A stretch of 64,000 bases of DNA from contig OX597819.1 in the NCBI GenBank assembly GCA_951406725.2, positions 120,032,001-120,096,000 on the forward strand, read 5' to 3'. The notes beneath the pieces were generated by a model, which did not search any database, was not told the origin of the DNA, and saw only the letters and a program-made list of their open reading frames with translations. Positions 2,891 through 57,181 of the stretch are shown here, in pieces; positions within the stretch are counted from its first letter, which is position 1; the number at the start of each line of letters is the position of its first letter. The translations under genes were made by a program, and so were the position numbers. This stretch comes from Octopus vulgaris (Eukaryota).

Positions 2891-3417
2891 AACGTGTCAC
2901 TGCCCTAACCCATTTTAAATTTAGATCTAAAAAGTGTAAGGGTAAGAACTCCTATTTTAATAAAATCAAGGGTAAAGATAGCTGTTATAGACGAGTACGC
3001 TGTTCATCGTACTGAGCAAAAGAGAACAGTACGATTTTCATTTTAGAGCTTCATTTAGAGTATCACCATGCAGACTGTATCCAGTATAGTGCCAAGTTTA
3101 CTACTATACTTAGTCGTATCACTGGTTATGATAAACATATTATAATAGGCACCAGTTTCAATCATTCAGTCTCCATGCATTCTACACCCTTGTGGTTACC
3201 GGAAATTGCTGCATTGGTTCTTTCTAATGCAACTGGATGATTAACCAAGACGAAAAGTTAAGGAAACCCTTTGTTGCGATATGCTACAATGGGAAATAGA
3301 AAGTAAGAAAATGGAGATACAAAAAGAGAAAAAAGAGAGAGAAGAAAAGAAAGGGAAAATGGACAAAGACAAAATGCCAAAAAAATGTTATTTAGAAATT
3401 ATATATATATATATATA

Positions 3418-3722
3418 ATGATAAATCTCAGAGCGAGTTATAAACAGCAGCGGTAACACATCGTGACGCATATTTGCCATTTGAATATGGCTAACCCCTA
3501 AGGGTGGATGCTACTGTAGTTTGTAGCCCAAGGAAGATATCTCCTCCGGCTGGCTATAGACACACTATCTGTGCCCTCTCAGTATTTGCGAAGGGAAGTC
3601 ATCCTCCCCGTCCCGTCTTCAACTCATGATACACACGGACTCGAGTTTCACGGTGTTTACCCTATCATCAGCGTGTGACAATCATGGTTGTCGACGAGAA
3701 GTCAGCTCCCTTCATACGTGTA
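3418..3722 (-). mobile_element. Non-coding hammerhead-bearing element (Penelope-like/retrozyme-like)
   Basis: GC-richer island directly after (TA)n; contains the hammerhead core at 3632-3677. Boundaries are approximate. Confidence 0.55.
3632..3677 (-). ncRNA. Minimal type-I hammerhead ribozyme
   Basis: Minus strand CACACG-CUGAUGA-U-AGGGUAAACACCGU-GAAAC-UCGA-GUC-CGUGUG: perfect 6-bp stem I, palindromic stem III ACUCGAGU, GUC cleavage triplet. Confidence 0.8.
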
Positions 3723-3734
3723 TCTGTGTGTCTT

Positions 3735-4874
3735 TTATAACGTTTACCCAACGTTTCTTTATGTTATATATTCTATCTTTAAAAAAAAGATTCATCTTTC
3801 GTTGTAATAAACTGTCCGAATGCTTCAATTACCTCTTCTCTATTGAAAAATGTTATATTGCTTACGAAAACTAAAACTGCTTAAATAAGTGATGATCAGT
3901 AGGAGAGATATCAGAGGAATAGGAAGGATGCAGCAAAATCCCATAATTCAGGCTTTCCAACTTTTGGACCGTGGCTTGGGAAGTGTGAGGACGTGCATTG
4001 CCGTGGAACAAATTGGGCCATTTCTATTCATTAGTCTGGGTTGCTTTTTTTTTCAAATTCTTATGCACACAATGAATTTTCTGTCTATACGATGTTGTTG
4101 TTACCATTTTTCTTTGTTGTAAAAATGAATAATTAATAACTACCCTTGTAGACCACCATATAGTGACTTTTTAGGGTGCAATGGTGGGTTTGGGTAGTGT
4201 TTAGGTGACTCTCCTGTTTCTAATCACTGCCCTGTTCTCCTGCTGTTGTCAAAGAATATACATTTCTCATCACAAGTAATGATTTTATGCAAAAATAGTC
4301 GTTTTCCATTCCAGAAAGCAATAAGGAGCACACTTAGAGGCGTCTATCTTTTTTTAAATCACGTTCAGTTGATGTAGAACAAACCTATCTGTTTTCTTGA
4401 CTTTTCCAATTTTTATAAGGTATCCAAAAACAGTTGTGCTAGATGTTTGGAGTCCTGATGAAAGTTTTCGAACCGTTGTTCTCTGAACTTGGTTCAACCA
4501 AAGCATTTAATCCATCATGTTGAATAACTGATTTTGGCCTAATCCTTGGTTTATTTTCAAGGCTGTCATCTCATGAACGAAAGCTTTGGAGCCATCTCTG
4601 ATCAGTTTTGATGTCAACAAAACCATTACCAAAGGGCCGGCTGGATATTCCGTAGAGCTTCTGCGGCAGAGTGACACAGTTTGTACTCATACAAGAAAAT
4701 CACTCAATACAGTTTCATTATCATTTGCATAAGGTCTGTGTGTACGAATTTTGTTGGGTACCAATATTGTTGGTAAAGAAAAAGAGTCAATGCTAAATGC
4801 AAGTTGCACATAATTGAGTTTTTAAGCGAGTGAAATAACAAGTAATTAACATTGCGATATTTCATGCGAAACAA

Positions 4875-5258: not shown

Positions 5259-5263
5259 TTTTT

Positions 5264-5397
5264 ATTTATTTTATAGAAGGAGCTTCTACAGGACTAGAAC
5301 TGTTTCACATTCAAATGAAATCATCAGGAAGCTTCCTGATGATTTCATTTGAATGAAACAGTTCTAGTCCTGTAGAAGCTCCTTCTATAAAATAAAT
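5264..5397. repeat. Spacerless ~134-bp palindrome containing two head-to-head hammerhead cores
   Basis: Arms are identical except a 2-bp indel, centred on AAGCTT at 5329-5334. Confidence 0.9.
5330..5380 (+). ncRNA. Minimal type-I hammerhead ribozyme (mirror copy on minus strand at 5281-5333)
   Basis: AGCUUC-CUGAUGA-UUUCAUUUGAAU-GAAA-CAG-uucuaguc-CUG-UA-GAAGCU: stem I AGCUUC/GAAGCU, stem III ACAG/CUGU, GUA triplet; stem II is weak. Confidence 0.7.
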
Positions 5398-5436
5398 TAA
5401 TTTACTCTGCAATGTATTGAGTACCTTATTTACTAC

Positions 5437-5503
<67 letters not shown>

Positions 5504-5671
5504 TATAAAATGAGATAGGGGTTGAAAATTCAACCCACCATGGGATAATATATATCCAATATACTGCTAGATAGGTAACAACAAAAATAATACATAGATG
5601 TTAAAAATTGTCAAGCAATCAGTTCATCTATTGTATTAAATGGGTAAAGGTAATAATATTACCGTAAATTA

Positions 5672-6321
5672 ATACTACAAAATTAGAGAATGGAGAAACA
5701 TACTTAAATCAGTAAAACATCAACTATCCGATGATATCAATCCATACTTTAATACACCATTACATATGAGTAAAGGCAATATATAAAATGAAATGAGATA
5801 TACAGTAATAGTAAAAGTAAAAAGATAAAGAGATATAAGTAAAATTTCAAATATAATATGCAAATAAATCAAAACTGACAGCTGTTTCGGCAGTGAGGAC
5901 AGTCATACCTCATTTAACCTATAAGCCATAAAGGCAGGTATAAATGAGGCATTAACAAGGATGCCCCACGGCCTCTTCAGAGAATTAAATTAAATTTGTT
6001 ATAATAGTGAAAAATATTATATAATCATATACATATAAATATAAAAATATAAAAATGTAGAATATAAAAACTTATACATCATAATGCTACACTTATATAA
6101 TATAATACACATTTGTACAAAAAGGAAGGTAAACAGAACAATATAAAACAAAATATATAACAGTGTATATATTAATATTAATAAGTACCGATATTATACA
6201 TATTTGGCTAATAGTTTTTTTTATAAAAAAAGGGCTAACACATATGGAGATGAAAAATAATAATTAAATCCGTGGTACAGTTCATAAAATTCTAAAGCTA
6301 TAAAAGTTAATAAAAATTACT

Positions 6322-6359
<38 letters not shown>

Positions 6360-6405
6360 TAATAATAATAAAAAAATACTAAAAATAGATACATTATTAT
6401 TATTA

Positions 6406-6455
<50 letters not shown>

Positions 6456-7098
6456 AGTAATTTTTATTAACTTTTATAGCTTTAGAATTTTATGAACTGT
6501 ACCACGGATTTAATTATTATTTTTCATCTCCATATGTGTTAGCCCTTTTTTTAAAAAAACTATTAGCCAAATATGTATAATATCGGTACTTATTAATATT
6601 AATATATACACTGTTATATATTTTGTTTTATATTGTTCTGTTTACCTTCCTTTTTGTACAAATGTGTATTATATTATATAAGTGTAGCATTATGATGTAT
6701 AAGTTTTTATATTCTACATTTTTATATTTTTATATTTATATGTATATGATTATATAATATTTTTCACTATTATAACAAATTTAATTTAATTCTCTGAAGA
6801 GGCCGTGGGGCATCCTTGTTAATGCCTCATTTATACCTGCCTTTATGGCTTATAGGTTAAATGAGGTATGACTGTCCTCACTGCCGAAACAGCTGTCAGT
6901 TTTGATTTATTTGCATATTATATTTGAAATTTTACTTATATCTCTTTATCTTTTTACTTTTACTATTACTGTATATCTCATTTCATTTTATATATTGCCT
7001 TTACTCATATGTAATGGTGTATTAAAGTATGGATTGAGTATCATCGGATAGTTGATGTTTTACTGATTTAAGTATGTTTCTCCATTCTCTAATTTTGT

Positions 7099-7103
<5 letters not shown>
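5672..7103. mobile_element. ~1.43-kb fold-back element (two ~700-bp inverted arms) with a hammerhead in each arm
   Basis: 5672-~6370 is the near-exact reverse complement of ~6393-7103; the centre is (AAT)n/(ATT)n with a ~22-bp spacer; no ORF; flanked by (TA)n. Confidence 0.85.
6792..6899 (+). ncRNA. Hammerhead ribozyme with extended, branched stem II (mirror copy on minus strand at 5875-5982)
   Basis: CUGAAGA (6794-6800), GGC.GUGGGG/CUCAC.GCC closing stem II, GAAAC-AGCU-GUC (6886-6897) with palindromic stem III; stem I is short. Confidence 0.7.
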
Positions 7104-10046: not shown

Positions 10047-10462
10047 TACTCTTTACTCTTTTACTCTGTTATTAGTTTCAGTCATTTGACTGCGGCCATG
10101 TTGGAGCACCGCCTTTAATCGAGCAACTCGACCCCGGGACTTATTCTTTGTAAGCCCAGTACTTATTCTATCGGTCTCTTTTGCCGAACCGCTAAGTAAC
10201 GGGGACATAAACACACCAGCATCGGTTGTCAAGCAATGCTTGGGGGACAAACACAGACACACAAACACACACACACACATATATATATATATAAATACAT
10301 ACGACGGGCTTCTTTCAGTTGCCGTCTACCAAATCCACTCACAAGGCTTTGGTCGGCCCGAGGCTATAGTAGAAGACATTTGCCCAAGGTGCCACGCAGT
10401 GGGACTGAACCCGGAACCATGTGGTTGGTAAACAAGCTACTTACCACACAGCCACTCCTGCG
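10047..10462 (-). mobile_element. SINE family A, full length
   Basis: Complete reverse-complement copy including the tRNA-like head and (TACTCTTT)n tail. Confidence 0.92.
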
Positions 10463-10702
10463 TTATATATGTATAAGCTTTCCGATATAAACTTGCAGTT
10501 CATTTTAGAAGCTCGGGGGAAGCTATGACGTAATGCACAAGTACTCAACTCTGAGTGCATTACATCTTATAGTAGAAACAGCTGCAAGCTGATGCAGTTC
10601 ATTGCATAAATTGCTCTTCGTTTGTTATCATGCAACTTGCATACAGACACATATACATATATAAATATATATATGTGTATGTATATACTTAAACGCACGC
10701 GC

Positions 10703-10749
<47 letters not shown>

Positions 10750-10894
10750 TACATGATATTAATATTATTGTATAGGGTTAAAGCTTAGAAGTGATTACCG
10801 TGTAGTGACGAATGAAAACAGTCATATAATAGGGCACATAAGCCCTAGACGAAAAAAATGGGGTTTTCGTACGGATGGGACTCGAATCCATTAA

Positions 10895-10956
<62 letters not shown>

Positions 10957-11042
10957 CTTACAGCATTGTAAAAAGCGACACCATTTACCAAATCATCACA
11001 GAAATATATTCCTATATATATATTCCAAAGAAATGACCAAAC

Positions 11043-11434
11043 AGGCGCAGGAGTGGCTGTGTGGTAAGTAGCTTGTTAACCAACCACATGGTTCCGGGTT
11101 CAGTCCCACTGCGTGGCATCTTGGGCAAGTGTCTTCTGCTATAGCCCCGGGCCGACCAATGCCTTGTGAGTGGATTTGGTAGACGGAAACTGATAGAAGC
11201 CTGTCGTATATATGTATATATATATGTGTGTATTTGTGTGTCTGTATTAATCCCCATAGCATTGCTTGACAACCGATGCTGGTGTGTTTACGTCTCCGTC
11301 ACCTAGCGGTTCGGCAAAAGAGATCGATAGAATAAGTACTGGGCTTACAAAGAATAAGTCCCGGGGTCGATTTGCTCGACTAAAGGCGGTGCTCCAGCAT
11401 GGCCGCAGTCAAATGACTGAAACATATAAAAGAG
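11043..11434 (+). mobile_element. SINE family A, full length
   Basis: ggcgcaggagtggctgtgtggtaag...ggcggtgctccagcatggccgcagtcaaatgactgaaac. Confidence 0.92.
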
Positions 11435-11499
11435 TTGAACAGAAAATATCAAGAGGGGAATGAAATGGAAGGCCTATGTTTTGACAAAGTTACGTACAC

Positions 11500-13153: not shown

Positions 13154-13574
13154 AGTAAGGCGGCGAGCTGGCAGAAACGTTAGCACACCTGGCGAAATGC
13201 TTTGCGGTATTTCGTCTGCCGCTACGTTCTGAGTTCAAATTCCGCCGAGGCCGAATTTGCCTTTCATCCTTTCGGGGTCGATTAAATAAGTACCAGTTAC
13301 GCACTGGGGTCGGTATGATCGACTTACTCCGTTTGTCTGTTCTTGTTTGTCCCCTCTATGTTTAGCCCCTTGTGGGTAGTGAAGAAATAAGTATTTTGTC
13401 TGCCGCTACGTTCTGAGTTGAAATTCAACCGAGGCCGAATTTGCCTTTCATCCTTTCGGGGTCGATTAAATAAGTAGCAGTTACGCACTAGGGTCGGTAT
13501 AATCGACTTACTCCGTTTGTCTGTCCTTGTTTGTCCCCCCCCCTATGTTTAGCCCCTTGTGGGTAGTGAAGAAA
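13154..13574 (+). mobile_element. tRNA-derived SINE family B with tandemly duplicated 3' part
   Basis: ggcggcgagctggcagaaacgttagca...gagttcaaattcc...tttagccccttgtgggtagtgaagaaat, body repeated from ~13391; TSD TAGTATTTAG at 13144-13153 and 13575-13584. Confidence 0.88.
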
Positions 13575-13651
13575 TAGTATTTAGCGTTTTACGGATTAGA
13601 AAAAAAATAGAAATAATATCAATATCGAGAGCTTCGATAATCTTGAGTGCT

Positions 13652-13759
13652 TGTGTGTGTGTGTGTGTGTGTTTGCGCGCGCGTGTGTGTGTGCGTGTGT
13701 GTGTGCGCGCGCGTGTGTGTGTGTGTGTGTTTGCGCGCGCGCGTGCGTGTGCGTGTGTG

Positions 13760-13804
<45 letters not shown>

Positions 13805-13931
13805 ATAAGCATACATGCATCTAAGCGTGTGTCTATGATTGCGTTCAATCATTTGTCTTCGTTAGATTTTCGCTGTTCGTTATTATCTTTTAGATATAGA
13901 AAACATTTATTGTGCGTGTGTGCGTATGTGC

Positions 13932-14003
<72 letters not shown>

Positions 14004-14006
14004 ATA

Positions 14007-14042
<36 letters not shown>

Positions 14043-14100
14043 TGTATGTATGTATGTGTGTGTGTGTGTGTGTATGTATGTGTGTATGTGTGTGTGTGTG
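13652..14100. repeat. Compound (TG)n/(CG)n/(TA)n/(TATG)n microsatellites
   Basis: Direct inspection. Confidence 0.9.
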
Positions 14101-15765
14101 TTTACGTATGAAAATTACTGAGATTTAACGAGCAAGATTACTGAAATATGCCTTAAACATTTACACATTACATTTATGGTTCCCTTCATTTCTTAGTGTT
14201 TGTAATTTCATGCGAATCGATCCCTCATTTCACGTATTCAGATTCACAATTAATGCACATCATTAATAAACAATGGTTGAATGAACGACACGCTATCGGT
14301 GCATCTCAATTCTTAAGTATCTAAAGCCAAAGAAATACAGTTCTATATGACGAGAAAATAAATTTAGATGTAAGAAATATAGCATTTAAAGCAGAATAAG
14401 AACAGATCTAATATAGCGAGAAACGTTGTAAATTATAGCAGGCAAATGAGATGGCTGATATAACATTTGCAGCTCAAAAACAAATCAAAATGAAACTATC
14501 TCACGTTGAATTTTACGAAATGTTTAAGTGGCATTTTTAGAATATTTTCAAGGATTCTAATCACTGAAGATAAACACAGTGTTAAGATTTAATTGTAATG
14601 AGAATGGAATAAAACTAGATAAAGTGTAAATGATTAATTTAAGGATTGTTTATCTTTTTGTACCTTGTGATGAGAAGCTACTATTAAATTATACTACGAT
14701 GATAGAATTTGCGGTGTCTGTAATATAAATCCGGCATATAATTGCTTAATTTTTCGGTGGAATATAAATCATCAAATTATGTCTAAATGGTTTAGACATT
14801 AATACGGTTAATCCCTCTCTGTTGTTTTCGTTTCTCTTAATGTAAAAGAGATGTGTTCTTTAAAATGTTTCATTATAGTAATTCATTTTTTGTAACAAAT
14901 TATATAAATAAAAGACAATGTTCCTTATACTTTTCTTACAACAATTAGCATTCGGGATAGAATCACAAATGATTAAATATTGCTTTCTCATTTAAGAGTA
15001 AGAAATGAATAAAGAAACAGATAAAGAAATACGCTGATAAATGAATAAATAATCGCTTCTTTTAGAGAAAACATCTTTGGCAATTTAAATCTCATTTTCA
15101 GAAATTAATATTTAAGTATACTTCAGGGTGTTTTTTCACACATCAAAGTGTGATCGAATATTTCATTCAAATTGTAAGCACCTGACATTCCAAAACAAGA
15201 AGTCTTCTTGTTTTTGATTTCTAATATGTATATTTACCGTATGTTTTAATATATTGTTTTACTTTCTTTGGTGCGTTTGTCTTGGAGGGATTTTCCTTTC
15301 AATAACATTTTCATATTTTTTTTTATTTATGTATGATGTCTCATCAACATAGTTTGTCTATGTTGGTTATTTTGCAATCTATTATCTTAAATAAATTATT
15401 AATTTATTTCCTGTAGGACACTAAACCGTACAATTAAACAAAGAGCTTTTTTCACAAACAAACTTTCGACAAAGTTATTGAAACATAACACCACCGACAA
15501 TGCTGCATATTGTTGATAATCAATGCAACGCATAAATAATAGGTGAAGAAAAAGTGGAATTCCTGCCCCAGTAAATGAAAGGATACTCTTGGTTATGGCG
15601 GCTTTACGCGGATATGTACACACGCATACTTATACATGCACACACAAATTCTCTCATACAAATATGACTACATGTAAATATACACACAGACAGAAATATA
15701 TAAAAATAGTAACAAACTAACATATACACATCTACACGTTTATAAATAGATACACACATATACCT

Positions 15766-15998
15766 GTTTCTTTATTACCCACAAGGGGCTAAACACAGAG
15801 AGGACAAACAAGGACAGACAAACGGATTAAGTCGCTTACATCGACTCCAGTGCGTAACCGGTACTTAATTTATCGATCTCGAAAGGATGAAAGGCAAATT
15901 CGACCTCGGCGGAATTTGAACTCAGAGCGTAATGGCAGACGAAATACGGCTGCGCATATCACCTCGCGTTCTAACGGTTCTGCCAGCTCGCCGCCTTC
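15766..15998 (-). mobile_element. SINE family B, full length
   Basis: Reverse complement of 28596-28829; 16-bp TSD ATACACACATATACCT at 15750-15765 and 15999-16014. Confidence 0.9.
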
Positions 15999-16811: not shown

Positions 16812-17221
16812 GCAGTAGTGGCTGTGTGGTAAGTAGCTTGTTTACGAACCACATGGTTCCGGGTTCAGTCCCACTGCGTGGCACCTTGGGCAAGTGTCTT
16901 CTACTATAGCCTCGGGCCGACCAAAGCTTTGTGAGTGGATTTGGTAGACAGAAACGGAAAGAAGCCCGTCGTATATATGTATATATATATAAGGGTGTGT
17001 GTGTTTGCGTGTCTGTGTTTGCCCCCTAGCATTGCTTGACAACCGATGCTGGTGTGTTTATGTCCCCGTTACTTAGCGGTTCGGCAAAAGAGACCGATAG
17101 AATAAGTACTGGGCTTACAAAGAATAAGTCCCGGGGTCGAGTTGCTCGATTAAAGGCGGTGCTCCAGCATGGCCGCAGTCAAAATGACTGAAACAAGTAA
17201 AAGAGTAAATAGTAAAGAGTA
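16812..17221 (+). mobile_element. SINE family A, full length
   Basis: Head gtggctgtgtggtaagtagc through tail aaacaagtaaaagagt. Confidence 0.92.
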
Positions 17222-17439
17222 GCTTTCAACAACAGCAGTCTGAGGCATCCAATACATATGATATGTTATTTTTATCAGTGTGATTTTGAATCGCAATTCC
17301 AATTTTAAAATATTCGTATTTTTGACGAGGGCGCAAAAAGAAATGTTATAACGGCCATGTCTTTTCTAACGATGTGGCCGAACAACCACAAGGAAGGCTG
17401 AATCGTTAGCCCATCGCACAAAATGCTAAGCAGTAGTTC

Positions 17440-17628
17440 TGCGGCCATGCTGAAGCATCGCCTTTTAGTCGAGCAAATCCACTTTAGTCTACCAAATCCT
17501 CTCGCAAGCCTTTGGTCGACCCGCGGCTATAGTAGAAGACATTTGGCCAAGGTGCCACGCAGTAGGAGTGAACCCGGAACCATGTGGTTAGTAAGCAAGC
17601 TACTTACCACACAGCCACTCCTGCGCCT
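17440..17628 (-). mobile_element. SINE family A, internally deleted
   Basis: Tail segment joined directly to the head segment (...cacagccactcctgcgcct). Confidence 0.8.
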
Positions 17629-17714
17629 ACTTCGTATCATTTTAACGTCAAAATATTCCATTTAGTTTAAAATATGTTTGTCATCCATTTATTATAAAAC
17701 TTCAACAAAAATAT

Positions 17715-18146
17715 AGGCGCAGGAGTGGCTGTGTGGTAAGTAGCTTGCTAACCAACCACATGGTTGCGGGGTCAGTCCCACTGCGTGGCATCTTGGGCAA
17801 GTGTCTTCTGCTATAGCCCCGGCCGACCAATGCCTCGTGAGTGGATTTGGTAGACGGAAACTGAAAGAAGCCTGTCGTATATGTGTGTATATATATATAT
17901 ATATGTGTGCGTGTGTGTTTGTGTGTCTGTGTTTGTCCCCCCACCTAGCATTGCTTGACAACCGATGCTGGTGTGTTTACGTCCCCGTCACTTAGCGGTT
18001 CGACAAAAAGAGACCGATAGAATAAGTACTGGGCTTAGAAAAGAATAAGTCCCGGGGTCGATTTGTTCAACTAAAGGCGGTGCTCCAGCATGGCCGCAGT
18101 CAAATGACTGAAACAAGTAAAAGAGTAAAAGAGTAAAAGAGTAAAA
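17715..18146 (+). mobile_element. SINE family A, full length
   Basis: Complete copy with (GTAAAAGA)n tail. Confidence 0.92.
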
Positions 18147-19204: not shown

Positions 19205-20063
<859 letters not shown>

Positions 20064-23000
20064 ATGTCAGAGGTCTGGTGAAACCCACTAATATGAGTAA
20101 AATTCCTTACCTTAGGGACTTAAGCACAAGCAACCATGCAATATGCATAGCGCTGACTGAAACGCACCTGTCAAGCAGTATAGCAGATGCAGAAATACAC
20201 GTACCAAAGTATACTGTTTTTCGGTCAGACAGGAAGGAAAGAACTCATGGTGGGGTTGCCCTGTACGTCCGTGAAGATGTCACACCCATAGTACTGTTGA
20301 CACACTCAAACTCAGTCTGTGACACACTGATAGTACACATGAAACAACCGAAAATAGTAATATGTGTCACATATCGGCCACCAGACACCCCTAGTCATGA
20401 AGGAGTGTTTGAAGATAGCCTCAGAAGAATAGAAGAAGTCCTGGACAAACTGGACCAGGGTAACACCATTCTACTGCTGGGAGATTTTAACCTTCCGAAA
20501 GTCAAATGGCCAGATGGCCATCTCCTCCCTGGAATGACATCACTTGAACAGAGACAGACAGAGTCCTTGTTGGCTCTCACACGCAAGTTTTTCATGGAAC
20601 AAGCAGTGCTTCGGCCAACAAGAGGTGAGAATGTCTTGGACCTCTGTTTCACAAGCAACCCGATGCTCATCCACAACATAATGGTAACACCTACAATTCT
20701 CTCAGATCACAACTTAGTAGAGGTAATGATATATGGTATGAGAGAGTTAGTTGAGACGCAGCCATTAGAAAATACCACAGGCCTATCCAGTCTAAACTTC
20801 CATAAGGCAAACTGGAAGAAGATCAACGAAGAGATCCGAAAACATGACTGGAGTGACTTCATCACCACACAAGAGACCAACACACATTTCCAACATTTCA
20901 TGACAACAATACAGAACATATGCCATAAGTTTGTCCCGGAGAAAAAAGCCAGCGGGCATAGGAACGTTATTCCCAGAGACAGGAAAATACTTATGAGGCG
21001 AAGAGCTAAGCTCTCGAAGCAACTGAATGCACGGCAGAGAAACAATAAGGGACTCCACCTGAAACTTTTTGAAACGGAAACTGCACTCAAACTTTCCTAT
21101 GAGAAGGAGAGGGCAGAGAGAGAAGCCAGGGCCATAGAGAATATTAAAACAAACCCTAAAGCTTTCTTTAAATTTGCGAAAGAAACCACCTCGGTACACT
21201 GCAAGATTGGCCCACTCTTTGATAAAAAGGGCTCTCTAACTGAGGACCCCCAAGGGATAAGTGAAATACTAAAGGAACAGTATAAAAGTGTGTTCACATC
21301 CCCTCTGGGGCACATGCAAATCACAAACCCAGAAGTTTTCTTTGATGCCACAACACTCCAAAACCAAACAACAACCATCGACCACATAGACATAACAGAG
21401 AGGGATGTAATATCTGCCATAGAAGAAATGAGAATAAACTCAGCTGCTGGACCAGATGGATTCCCAGCAGTCCTCCTAAAAACATGCAGGCATGCCCTAG
21501 CGGGACCACTGAAGATGCTCTTCAGTGGTTCCTTGGCTAACGGTAAACTGCCCAGGGCGCTAAAAGAAGGCACCATATGCCCTATCCACAAAGGAGGGAG
21601 TAGAGCAGAGGCCAAAAACTACAGGCCAGTCTCCCTGACGTCACACATAAGTAAGGTCATGGAACGAATCATCAGAAAAAAACTGATCACGTTCCTCGAA
21701 GAAACTAACCGTCTCACTGACACACAGCATGGCTTTCGCCCAGGAAGAAGCTGCCTTACGCAGCTGTTACAACACTACGACTGGGTACTGAAACAACTAC
21801 TGGATCGCTCACAGGTGGATGTGGTATATCTCGACTTTGCGAAGGCCTTTGACAAAGTCGACCACGGAGTGATATGTCACAAATTACTCAGACTCGGCAT
21901 AACAGGAAAAGTAGGTGAGTGGATACATGACTTCCTGAAGGACAGAAGCCAGATGGTTGCAGCCAATGGAGCCCTCTCGGGAAAGACACCAATAGCAAGC
22001 GGGGTGCCACAGGGCACAGTCTTGGGACCCTTGCTGTTTTTGGTGGCGCTCTCTGACATGCCCTTGGTAGCACAAACAACATCCCTCACTAGCTATGCTG
22101 ATGACACAAAGGTAGCACAGGCAATCAAAAACCCAGCTGATGCTGACCTTTTACAACAAGATCTGGATGCCATATACAAATGGGCTGAAGACAACAACAT
22201 GCAATTTAATGCTGGTAAATTTCAAGCCTTACAATATCAAGCTGTAAACACATATACATTACAACACAACTATACTGGTCCAGGAGGGATCGAAATCCCA
22301 GTATCGAAATCAATACGGGACCTGGGGATAGACATGAGTGACGATGCATCTTTTTCTTCACACATCGCGAAGGTGGCGACAATGTGCAGACGACTCACTG
22401 GCTGGATCCTGAGGACATTCCGGACAAGAGACTGCGAGACCATGTTGACACTATGGAGGACATTTGTCCTAAGCCGCCTAGACTACTGCTCCCAACTGTG
22501 GTCACCGCATAGTGTCAAACTAACCACAGAGCTTGAGACAATCCAAAGACATTTCACCAAGAGGATTTCCACCATGAAAGAAAAGAACTATTGGGAGAGG
22601 CTTAGGGAACTCAATTTGTACTCCTTGGAACGAAGACGAGAGAGATATGCAGTGATATACATATGGAAAATCCTGGAGGGACTAGCACCAAATTTTGGAA
22701 TTGAGAGCTGTTCCAATCCCCGTACAGGTCGTCACTGTGTGGTGCCAAAGGTCCCGTCTTCCACATCCAGGGTAAGGAGCAGATACTGTAATAGCCTGGG
22801 GTTCAGGGGCCCTCAGCTGTTCAACAAACTGCCAAGAAAACTAAGAGATCTACATGATGCGGATGTGGACATTTTCAAAAAACATCTAGACAAGCTGCTT
22901 TCCGGGATCCCAGATGAACCCACTGCAAGGTACGAAGGTAACCTAAGGGCAGCAGCTACAAACTCTCTCTTAGATCAGTGGCCAGCCACGGCAAACTGGA

Positions 23001-23073
23001 CTTAGAGAGGGTAGCAACAAGGGCGGTGCCCCAGCATGGCCTCAGCCGGATGGCTGAAACAAGTAAAAGATAA

Positions 23074-53188: not shown

Positions 53189-53826
53189 GGTAAAACTGAG
53201 ACCACACACATGGGAAGCACACAAGCAGATGCAATCTAACCTAATTCTTTGAGTTTGAGAAGAATAATTTTCAGGCTACAATCAGTGGAACAGTATGATT
53301 TTTATTTGTCCAATTTCTTTATACCCGCTTCATTCAACATCACTAATTATTTGAAAGGAATCCTTCCGTCACATTAGCCAACCCTTCTAAAGATGATGTA
53401 TTCTGTATTACATAAGAAGATATGGTTCCTGTTTATGGTTAATGTATATTGTTATTATGCTTATTTAGTTCTCATCTATTCGCTAAACATCAGTAGTTGT
53501 TCGCATAACATACTGTAACAGCTGTAAAAACAAGATTATGTCATATTTTGTAACGCAACAACTCATGCAAATATGTGTTATAGACCTACCATTCTTTTTT
53601 CATCTCTCTTATTGATCTTAGCTCAAAATTGGGTTCCAGACAATTCACCTGGTAATGGATTACATCCTTGGGACTAAGAAGTTCGGTTTTATGAATTGGA
53701 ATCATTTCATCACTAACAATCTAGAACCCATATATTCGTGCGAAAGCATTCTCTATCTATTACTGTCGCTGAGACATGCATTCATGTACATCTATATCAA
53801 CATCTTTTTGTGAGTATATATATATA

Positions 53827-54249
53827 TACTCTTTTACTCTTTTACTCTTTTACTTGTTTCAGTCATTTGACTGCGGCCATGCTGGAGCACCGCCTTTAGT
53901 CGAGCAAATCGACCCCGGGACTTATTCTTTGTAAGCCCAGTACTTATTCTATCGGTCTCTTTTGCCGAACCGCTAAGTAACGGGGACGTAAACACACCAG
54001 CATCGGTTGTCAAGCAATGCTAGGGAGACAAACACCGACACACAAACATATACACAACACTTATATATATATATATACATATATACGACAGGCTTCTTTC
54101 AGTTTCCGTCTACCAAATCCACTCACAAGGCATTGGTCGGCCCGGGGCTATAGCAGAAGACACTTGCCCAAGATGCCACGCAGTGGGACTGAACCCGGAA
54201 CCATGTGGCTGGTTAGCAAGCTACTTACCACACAGCCACTCTTGCGCCT
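53827..54249 (-). mobile_element. SINE family A, full length, near consensus
   Basis: (TACTCTTT)n tail through cacagccactcttgcgcct. Confidence 0.93.
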
Positions 54250-54297
54250 ATATATATATGTATATATATATTGACAACCGATATATATATATATGTA

Positions 54298-54478
54298 TTG
54301 ACAACCGATGCTGGTGTGTTTATGTCCCCGTTACTTAGCGGTTCGGCAAAAGAGACCGATAGAATAAGTACTGGGCTTACAAAAAGAATAAGTCCCGGGG
54401 TCGAATTGCTCGATTAAAGGCGGTGCTCCAGCATGGCCGCAGTCAAATGACTGAAACAAGTAAAAAATGTAAAAGAGT
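54298..54478 (+). mobile_element. SINE family A, 3' half (inverted relative to the preceding copy)
   Basis: ttgacaaccgatgctggtgtg...gactgaaacaagtaaaa. Confidence 0.88.
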
Positions 54479-54630
54479 ATATATATAAAACACTCGGGGA
54501 GTGAAAAAGTCTTTAACGTTTCGAGCCTACGCTCTTCCAAAGAAAGTAACACAGAAAGAAACAAGGAGAGAAAATGAAGAATCTGTAGTGGCTAGCGATC
54601 TATCATATATATATATATATATATATAAGC

Positions 54631-54988: not shown

Positions 54989-55029
<41 letters not shown>

Positions 55030-55031
<2 letters not shown>

Positions 55032-56312
55032 CAAATTATTACATTATATAAAAGGGCTTAGTAAAATAAATTACTTTGCCACATACTGAACTCATTAGAA
55101 ATAGTAGCTAAAAAAACTTTTTTAAAACTATTTCTAATACTTAAAGAAAATCTCTCTCATATTGTGTTTGCTCAATTCAACTCACGAAAGTATGGGGGTA
55201 AAGACATTAAAAAATCAAATGCAAAGGTTATTTGAGAACGTACGTTTCAAGATTAGTCAACTCGACATTTCTATCATCAGCTCAGAACTCCTTGGTTTGG
55301 ATTTGAAAACACTGAAAGTGGGAGCATACCCTTTCGGCTTCTTATCGCTTCTGAAGATCTGCTCGAAACTAACAGTGCCAGCACACCCAGAATATGCAAG
55401 CGAAGAATTTCTGCTCTCCCCTTTCCACCAGCGTGGGTTAAAATCAGTAAACACTATGCTTTTTCGGTAAAATCCGAAACATTAAATAGAGAGAGATGAA
55501 TTATAATTTCAACAATTGAGGGTAAAATTAATTAATTATTAATCAATTTCACCAAGTGTTCAGTATGTAAAGGGACCATTTAAGGCGAATTCAAATTATT
55601 ACATTATATAAAAGGGCTTAGTAAAATAAATTACTTTGCCACATACTGAACTCATTAATGTAATAATTTGAATTCGCCTTAAATGGTCCCTTTACATACT
55701 GAACACTTGGTGAAATTGATTAATAATTAATTAATTTTACCCTCAATTGTTGAAATTATAATTCATCTCTCTCTATTTAATGTTTTGGATTTTACCGAAA
55801 AAGCATAGTGTTTACTGATTTTAACCCACGCTGGTGGAAAGGGGAGAGCAGAAATTCTTCGCTTGCATATTTTGGGTGTGCTGGCACTGTTAGTTTCGAG
55901 CAGATCTTCAGAAGCGATAAGAAGCCGAAAGGGTATGCTCCCACTTTCAGTGTTTTCAAATCCAAACCAAGGAGTTCTGAGCTGATGATAGAAATGTCGA
56001 GTTGACTAATCTTGAAACGTACGTTCTCAAATAACCTTTGCATTTGATTTTTTAATGTCTTTACCCCCATACTTTCGTGAGTTGAATTGAGCAAACACTA
56101 TATGAGAGAGATTTTCTTTAAGTATTAGAAATAGTTTTAAAAAAGTTTTTTTAGCTACTATTTCTAATGAGTTCAGTATGTGGCAAAGTAATTTATTTTA
56201 CTAAGCCCTTTTATATAATGTAATAATTTGAATTCGCCTTAAATGGTCCCTTTACATACTGAACACTTGGTGAAATTGATTAATAATTAATTAATTTTAC
56301 CCTCAATTGTTG

Positions 56313-56320
<8 letters not shown>
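55030..56320. mobile_element. Fold-back of a terminally redundant 560-bp hammerhead-bearing monomer
   Basis: The block at 55030-55097 repeats directly at 55590-55657 (period 560); 55658-56320 is the reverse complement of the same unit in a different circular permutation; (TA)n on both sides. Confidence 0.88.
55978..56029 (+). ncRNA. Minimal type-I hammerhead ribozyme (mirror copy on minus strand at 55233-55284)
   Basis: UGAG-CUGAUGA-U-AGA.aau.GUCG.AGU.UGAC.uaa.UCU-U-GAAAC-GUAC-GUU-CUCA: stem I UGAG/CUCA, palindromic stem III ACGUACGU, GUU triplet. Confidence 0.78.
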
Positions 56321-56362
<42 letters not shown>

Positions 56363-57181
56363 TATATGTGTGTGTGTGTGTACATATATACATTACACAC
56401 ACACATATCTGTATACATATATAAAGAGAGAGAGGGAGAGAGAGAGATAGGTACATATATGCGTACGCAAGTACGAGTGTGTGCGTATGTGTGTGTGTGT
56501 GTGTGCGTTTGTGTGTGTGTGTGTGTGTCTGTGTGTGTGTGTGTGCGTGTGTGAATTATTCGAACTCTTATATCGAATTAACCTTTCGAATCTCGAAAAT
56601 ACGCTGCTTCCTTTCCTATATTAATTACATCGGAGGCAGCGCACTGTTGAAAACGTTCCAAGTAGGATTTGTATTTTTGTGAGCGTGGACAGGGAATTAA
56701 TGAAATAATGAAACGCCCCGAGCAGAAGAAAAATTTAAGAGAGAATTCCATACAAAGACTCCTCTTATATTACATAAATATCATCCACAGTCAACCGAAT
56801 ATTTAGATGATTATCAGAAAGTTAAACTATTTCTTTCTCACAATACGTGTAAATTTAATAACGAAAGAGAATCAAACAAATTTATATGTATATGTATCTT
56901 TTTTTTTTTTTAATGAGATTGTAGTTATGGAATTGAAATGCTGAGAATAAATTCTACAACTGAAATTGAAATACACATTCTGTGGAGTAATTGATTTAGT
57001 AATGATCTGAATATAATTTTCTTTAATTTTATTTTATCTAGTTTTAAGTCAATTATTTGTTACAATGTGGTTTTCAGTTCAGTTGTGGAATTTCTTCGCA
57101 AATATGTGTGCATGTGTGTGTGTGTGTAAATAGATAGATAAATAGATAGATAGATAGAAAGATAGACAGACTGACAGACCT

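Follow-up and report, generated by a model that had tools for sequence, protein, structure and literature searches.

The window, by which we mean the whole 64,000-nt stretch of Octopus vulgaris DNA analysed here, contains at 55030-56320 two arms joined back to back between (TA)n runs. Both arms are slightly more than one copy of a closed unit of 560 nt, which we define as 55656-56215 (offset 0 at 55656); in units, the left arm measures 1.12 and the right arm 1.19. The features of the locus are as follows.

54994-55027, no strand: left (TA)n flank, a 34-nt run, likely the target microsatellite
55024-55034, minus strand: left outer 3' end, 11 nt identical with the right outer end, reaching unit offset 16 via TTGAA
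55030-55657, minus strand: left arm, 628 nt, reverse complement of unit offsets 509-559, 0-559 and 0-16, with 3 mismatches
55224-55293, minus strand: predicted type I hammerhead of the left arm, CTGATGA at 55280
55605-55616 and 56209-56218, plus strand: two-way TATA-like box at unit offsets 553-562, a candidate promoter element
55607-55655, minus strand: spacer between the inverted arms, 49 nt, unit offsets 511-559
55653-55660, no strand: junction CATTAATG, whose central TA (55656-55657) belongs to both arms
55656-56320, plus strand: right arm, 665 nt, unit offsets 0-559 and 0-104
55969-56038, plus strand: predicted type I hammerhead of the right arm, CTGATGA at 55982, GAAA at 56014-17, GTT at 56023-25
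56123-56169, plus strand: predicted hairpin at unit offsets 467-513, whose 3' base coincides with the 5' end of the left arm (offset 509)
56310-56320, plus strand: right outer 3' end TTGAAATTATA, the putative reverse-transcription start site, whose TATA runs into the microsatellite
56317-56358, no strand: right (TA)n flank, a 42-nt run

Direct repeats with a period of 560 are found in both arms (68 nt in the left, 55030/55590, and 105 nt in the right, 55656/56216, each 100% identical), in agreement with the original prediction, which read the left arm as blocks A-B-C-A. The inverted arms (55030-55606 and 55656-56232) match over 577 nt with about 99-99.5% identity and 3 differences, at 55163/56099, 55390/55872 and 55476/55786, so the few differing bases noted earlier are borne out by the count. 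At 55786, 55872 and 56099 the sense strand of the right arm reads T and the left arm C, C and A, respectively; at 55786 the family majority has the left-arm base. Both arms carry G at 55878, a rare variant (T in 153,890 of 154,573 depth in run X1), which argues for a single donor of both arms. The hammerhead strands face outward, meaning that the arms are joined head-to-head and their 3' ends abut the (TA)n runs. The back-to-back arm structure at 55030-56320 is real.

The unit has 33% GC and is predicted to be strongly self-paired, like a retrozyme circle: its circular minimum free energy is -144.9 against -110.1 +/- 6.0 in 25 shuffles (z -5.8), the z-score of the linear fold is -6.0, and 62% of the unit is predicted to be paired. 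Its longest stop-free stretches span 56-110 aa, and all five that were scanned lacked a Pfam match above the cut-off; by these two measures the element has no ORF for a reverse transcriptase with GIY-YIG endonuclease.

The hammerhead was spotted both by hand and by script, and its motif is complete at +55982 and -55280, which confirms the earlier placement of one hammerhead in each B block. In the copy at 55969-56038, stem I consists of 4 bp, a 5x5 loop and a distal 4 bp, stem II of a U-U and 3 bp (with 3 bp distal), and stem III of 2 bp with a palindromic GTAC loop; the predicted cut falls after GUU, at 56025. A relaxed hammerhead descriptor matched five times in the window, whereas 30 tile-shuffled windows gave 0.03 matches on average and at most 1. 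Rfam gave no match in the window at the gathering score, and at E<=10 the 17 sub-threshold matches within 55000-56400 included no hammerhead. Rfam matches to mir-2513 were rejected as a product of the fold-back itself. The hammerhead pattern had 0 matches in metagenome, prokaryote-genome and viral contigs. Among the listed family variants, one of the seven variable sites in 55969-56038 is constrained and keeps a G-U pair there (P 0.008); going by these variants, which spare the core and stems, the hammerhead looks conserved within the family. In the circle, the full hammerhead lies 4.6 kcal/mol above the lowest-energy fold, although stem I is preformed. The stem III palindrome was computed to reach -9.8 kcal/mol as a dimer duplex, and such a stem would favour a dimeric ribozyme; dimeric working has been described for metazoan type I hammerheads in the cited section of PMC4209133. 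The two-unit criterion asks for at least two tandem units with hammerhead on one strand, and the locus has one hammerhead per strand. With a single hammerhead per strand at 55030-56320, no monomer could be released from the locus, which would make it a dead-end copy.

Other hammerhead elements lie in the window. A second head-to-head palindrome, unrelated in sequence, was found between (TA)n runs at 5672-7103 (98.3%), in the stretch 5498-7103; it has type I hammerheads at +6794 and -5980 with a stem II insert of 85 nt, a left arm about 175 nt longer, and its centre in (TAT)n near 6387. At 5261-5400, with (TA)n on either side, is a spacer-free mini palindrome centred on AGCT (5330-5333), with hammerheads at +5336 and -5327 and a right arm about 45 nt longer. 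Being spacer-free and centred on self-complementary AGCT, it suits the annealing of two cDNA ends, and the recurrence of the same (TA)n-arm-arm-(TA)n layout in two unrelated hammerhead elements points to a common insertion mode in this genome. An unrelated canonical type I hammerhead occurs on the minus strand at 3410-3735 (CTGATGA at 3671, TCGA loop, GTC site), in a piece of about 320 nt that stops in (TA)n at about 3410; the adjoining 3740-4700 resembles a mariner remnant. The window also contains an open 1090-aa LINE ORF (19733-23005, plus strand) with endonuclease (PF14529, PF03372) and reverse transcriptase (PF00078) domains, which is not a Penelope-like element (PLE), and more local inverted and direct repeats built from short interspersed repeats (53819-54487, 10052-11446, 16812-18143 and 13157-15997).

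We found the unit in 20 public sequencing runs from 9 studies and 4 organisms, none of them recorded as RNA. Family contigs from four of the 20 runs were aligned onto the repeat-free 558 nt of 55607-56164, which holds each unit position once plus the junction. Matching contigs numbered 9,366, 4,599, 3,000 and 244 per run, with thousands in the three DNA-type runs; by rough inference this is a high-copy family of the order of thousands, sequencing depth itself not being a copy number. The joints that close the unit were recovered in all four runs (55607/55656) and in three of the four (55657/56164). The share of contigs continuing into unlike sequence was 0, 0, 0 and 0.02, which gives no sign of an attached ORF, with 24 loose ends listed out of 340. 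In run X1, depth medians drop inward from the 3' end (2.1, 1.3 and 0.57 million), a trend that the peaks (2.2, 1.7 and 1.7 million) do not follow; the depth profile favours neither arrays nor truncated copies. The longest aligned stretch among the contig pieces listed is 133 nt. A 630-nt contig present in X1 and X3, from two organisms, has a 133-nt match of about 86% at 55825-55957, likely an older shared family fragment.

The family contigs contain further opposite-strand joints. Eleven of the 15 listed (28 in total) link the antisense A block to the sense unit; these represent 11 distinct junctions at a depth of 44-64, with overlaps of 0-6 nt or a few inserted letters, and come from contigs of three runs. 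A further opposite-strand joint, 55908/56004, appears among the joints listed for two of the organisms. At the other listed family junctions, about 60-280 nt of the circular unit separate the two arm ends. One arm ends in the 51-nt A block in 11 of 11 listed skip joints, against about 12% expected under uniform ends, an excess that could be a bias of the alignment tool, with 15 of the 28 joints listed. The predicted cut lies no more than 11 nt from the start of the other arm in three of the 11 listed junctions (P 0.002 with a window of 12 nt and 0.03 with one of 31 nt, the window having been picked post hoc); the tally covers the 11 listed, and 3 of unlisted kind were excluded. Two family junctions, at 55678 and 55682, are found about 25-30 nt downstream of the sense TATA-like box, the kind of the second being unlisted.

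At the junction of the locus itself, TAATG starts the 5' end of either arm (unit offsets 509 and 560). The original prediction had the arms meeting at a micro-palindrome at about 55653-55660; its position and the join at microhomology hold, and an 8-nt microhomology was ruled out, the overlap between the arms being TA, 2 nt. None of the 32 contig pieces listed for the four runs bridges the junction, with 17,454 more beyond the listing.

Outside the TA runs, the flanks have the microsatellite as the sole sequence in common. TA runs of such size number 59 in the 64-kb window, and a one-sided TA flank is thus weakly telling. The two outer ends share the stretch TATAATTTCAA, so they do read alike inward from the TA, over 11 letters, one more than first counted, of which four are supplied free by the microsatellite. 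On the right, these 11 nt simply belong to the unit (offsets 94-104). Leaving out the 82 nt between two TTGAA copies (unit offsets 12-16 and 94-98) turns the right end into the left one, whose letters run on into offset 11, as TTGAA recurs at 12-16. TTGAA is found at 3 of 560 sites elsewhere in the unit, giving a chance match of about 0.5%. The common 11-nt ends together with the rarity of TTGAA make one fixed start site for both arms likely. The simplest reading of the left-arm end, judged from these letters, is likely one start site with an 82-nt skip or later deletion; the earlier view that the arms are different permutations of the unit is not supported, the left end matching the right end after the TTGAA-to-TTGAA skip. 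The 82-nt asymmetry could alternatively reflect a second start site, that is, a long PLE-type 'tail'. In run X8, which is RNA by guess and serves here as no evidence of expression, a loose end meets (TA)n at 55753, 7 nt off the putative start site. By fold prediction the outer end falls within a weak AU stem-loop, on its 3' strand; we considered the shared end as a counterpart of the anole PLE stem-loop start site and rejected this, the AU stem-loop being too weak.

Our preferred reading, to which we give a probability of roughly 0.6, is one insertion of a non-coding hammerhead repeat by a borrowed PLE reverse transcriptase-endonuclease, with copying from both (TA)n strands. A PLE protein would nick both strands of the (TA)n run, and each 3'-OH would prime at one internal RNA site, offset 104 (...UUGAAAUUAUA), where UAUA can pair with the target. 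In the left cDNA, the 82 nt between two UUGAA copies would be missing through a skip during synthesis or a later loss. Synthesis of both cDNAs would have continued through the uncut hammerhead site and ended at offsets 509 (the hairpin base) and 560, and their 3' ends would have annealed by the self-complementary TA and then been filled in. The pairing of TATA with the target invoked here contrasts with the PLE start site studied in vitro, which is non-homologous to its target.

As to the template, we put an uncleaved linear transcript longer than the unit slightly ahead, at somewhat better than even odds; a ligated circle is a serious but lesser candidate. The leaning towards a linear template comes from the junction ends in the A block, which look like many RNAs starting there. 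At this locus, a circle and an uncleaved longer transcript yield identical DNA. The original prediction had proposed rolling reverse transcription of a circular or tandem RNA of about 560 nt; the arms of more than a unit that run through an intact hammerhead site stand and likely reflect reverse transcription, whereas the free permutations are not supported. The locus is thus likely an ordinary Penelope-like insertion footprint on a retrozyme-type parasite, and alone it is no proof of circular RNA.

An unlikely alternative, though the best of those weighed, is snap-back, in which priming took place once: synthesis of the first cDNA ended at offset 509, its 3' TA folded back onto its own sequence at a distance of 51 nt, and this cDNA then served as template for the second arm, which was extended into (TA)n, with the 82 nt at the left end lost later. 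This would readily give arms that are 99.5% identical and have rare variants in common, the 49-nt spacer would be a natural fold-back loop, and self-priming has been proposed for PLE junction palindromes in the cited part of PMC3846280. However, the wide separation of the arm ends at other family junctions (about 60-280 nt), several of them without overlap or with insertions, fits it poorly, the spacer-free element at 5261-5400 is hard to obtain from a self-primed loop, and a separate later deletion is required.

The mechanism first envisaged, in which reverse transcription rolls round a 560-nt circle from free starts, would give independent permutations and need one template switch. Each arm does exceed one unit and cross the intact cut site, the fold is retrozyme-circle-like (z -5.8), the hammerhead looks conserved, and circles are known for mussel, coral and axolotl retrozymes according to the cited section of PMC7229834. 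The 11-nt identical outer ends, however, fit one start plus a TTGAA skip, and the loose end in X8 meets (TA)n at a distance of 7 nt from that start, so that we regard free starts as improbable; a circle on which the start is fixed would be compatible with the two-strand priming that we prefer.

A rearrangement of a tandem repeat at the DNA level, by fork switching or end joining and free of reverse transcription, appears very improbable: DNA repair, too, typically involves microhomologies such as those seen here (2 and 5 nt), but the 3' ends stop exactly at (TA)n, the flanks beyond the microsatellite are unrelated, and three unrelated hammerhead elements of equal polarity occur in one window. 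That the fold-back is an artefact of assembly or chimeric reads we consider hardly credible even though the exact junction is unbridged among the pieces listed for four runs, because there are 11 other head-to-head junctions and two like-built elements in the window, the palindrome stops short of the flanks, the arms are unequal in length and have 3 differing bases, the left arm carries the family-majority base at 55786, and comparable junctions are found at depth 44-64 in three runs, with 55908/56004 in two organisms.

Returning to insertion by a borrowed PLE protein, we classify the element as a new non-autonomous, PLE-type, retrozyme-like family with a known insertion mode. It is filed as retrozyme-like and not as a full retrozyme because of the single hammerhead per strand, tandem arrays and a circular RNA being hypothetical for the family. 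A more far-reaching and tentative proposal, which we hold to be doubtful, is that the family belongs to the animal retrozymes, with a large unit of 560 nt and cleavage at GUU, and that its insertions record a PLE dimer priming both strands at one RNA site, rolling more than one round of a circle in some cases and running off a hammerhead-cut linear monomer in others.

If this large-unit retrozyme reading were true, a map of the junctions could test PLE mobilisation and circle templates. A family with many junctions could tell twin priming from snap-back and a circular from a linear template. The mobilisation of animal retrozymes by PLEs rests on co-occurrence, shared hammerheads and likeness to pLTRs in the cited sections of PMC7229834 and bioRxiv 10.64898/2026.07.22.740005, and a closed non-coding hammerhead unit with a PLE footprint gives structural support, of modest value, to that link. 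Such palindromes would also yield long double-stranded RNA, and a read-through transcript of the locus would fold into a hairpin of about 577 bp. The ingredients have each already been described, so that known biology is extended and not overturned.

Compared with animal non-LTR retrozymes, as described in the cited parts of PMC7229834 and bioRxiv 10.64898/2026.07.22.740005, the element is alike in having a closed unit that is non-coding, low in GC and present in high copy and that carries a type I hammerhead. Axolotl HHR_Amex2 likewise combines a 2-bp stem III and a palindromic tetraloop with a U-U at the stem II base, and strong predicted self-pairing is also reported for animal retrozymes, for which PLE mobilisation has been proposed. 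The unit of 560 nt is larger than the 170-400 nt of invertebrate retrozymes and lies inside the range of 51-972 bp (bioRxiv 10.64898/2026.07.22.740005, section cited), and the GUU cut site differs from animal retrozymes. Under the two-unit rule for 'active' copies, as worded in the cited part of the same preprint, the locus with its one hammerhead per strand is not an active one. The main texts of PMC7229834 and bioRxiv 10.64898/2026.07.22.740005, in the parts consulted, mention neither a head-to-head (TA)n layout nor inverted copies, and their supplements may differ. Our literature search found no paper linking retrozymes with a head-to-head arrangement and none on such an element in Octopus or cephalopods; the words ribozyme and retrozyme are absent from the text and supplement of the O. 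vulgaris repeat paper.

Among hammerhead-bearing PLEs, those of Schistosoma have opposite-strand pairs 100-700 bp apart (702 bp here), and the hammerheads reported in the cited section of PMC4209133 are minimal and belong to truncated coding PLEs, whereas the one described here lies in a closed non-coding unit and has a full stem III and an extended, canonical-like stem I. The use of circles as templates for reverse transcription of more than a unit is the hypothesis of Cervera 2014 (PMC4209133, same section). Non-autonomous Chlamys PLEs such as MRC1 are comparable in their lack of autonomy, their pLTRs and their head-to-tail multicopy insertions; they are green-algal, and the Naiad/Chlamys group is described without canonical hammerheads, unlike the present family (PMC8557442, in the portion cited).

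Endonuclease-bearing PLEs differ in having an ORF for reverse transcriptase and GIY-YIG endonuclease, whereas the unit here closes on itself after 560 nt; in addition, the hammerhead here lies outside the duplicated block, and the asymmetry of the ends is 82-88 nt, compared with the 30-40 nt usual for a PLE tail. They have in common with the present element a partial tandem, with the pLTR-like duplication here measuring 105-156 nt, a (TA)n or AT-rich target and, as a probable feature here, deletion at microhomology and an internal fixed start of reverse transcription (PMC3846280, PMC8557442 and PMC11167929, cited sections), and a similar two-way TATA near the junction in Penelope pLTRs (PMC3846280). 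In the experiments cited from PMC11167929, the anole PLE protein in vitro nicked and extended both strands from the same internal RNA starts, preferred AT-rich DNA and used mainly uncleaved RNA, with hammerhead cleavage being dispensable. The account cited from PMC8557442 treats 5'-truncated copies in inverted orientation, tails on one side and (TA)n targets as normal for PLEs. An inverted, 5'-truncated, head-to-head copy with a junction palindrome and one longer end, as seen at 55030-56320, is likewise found in PLEs, and head-to-head inverted copies with junction palindromes are the commonest Penelope arrangement in the portion of PMC3846280 cited here.
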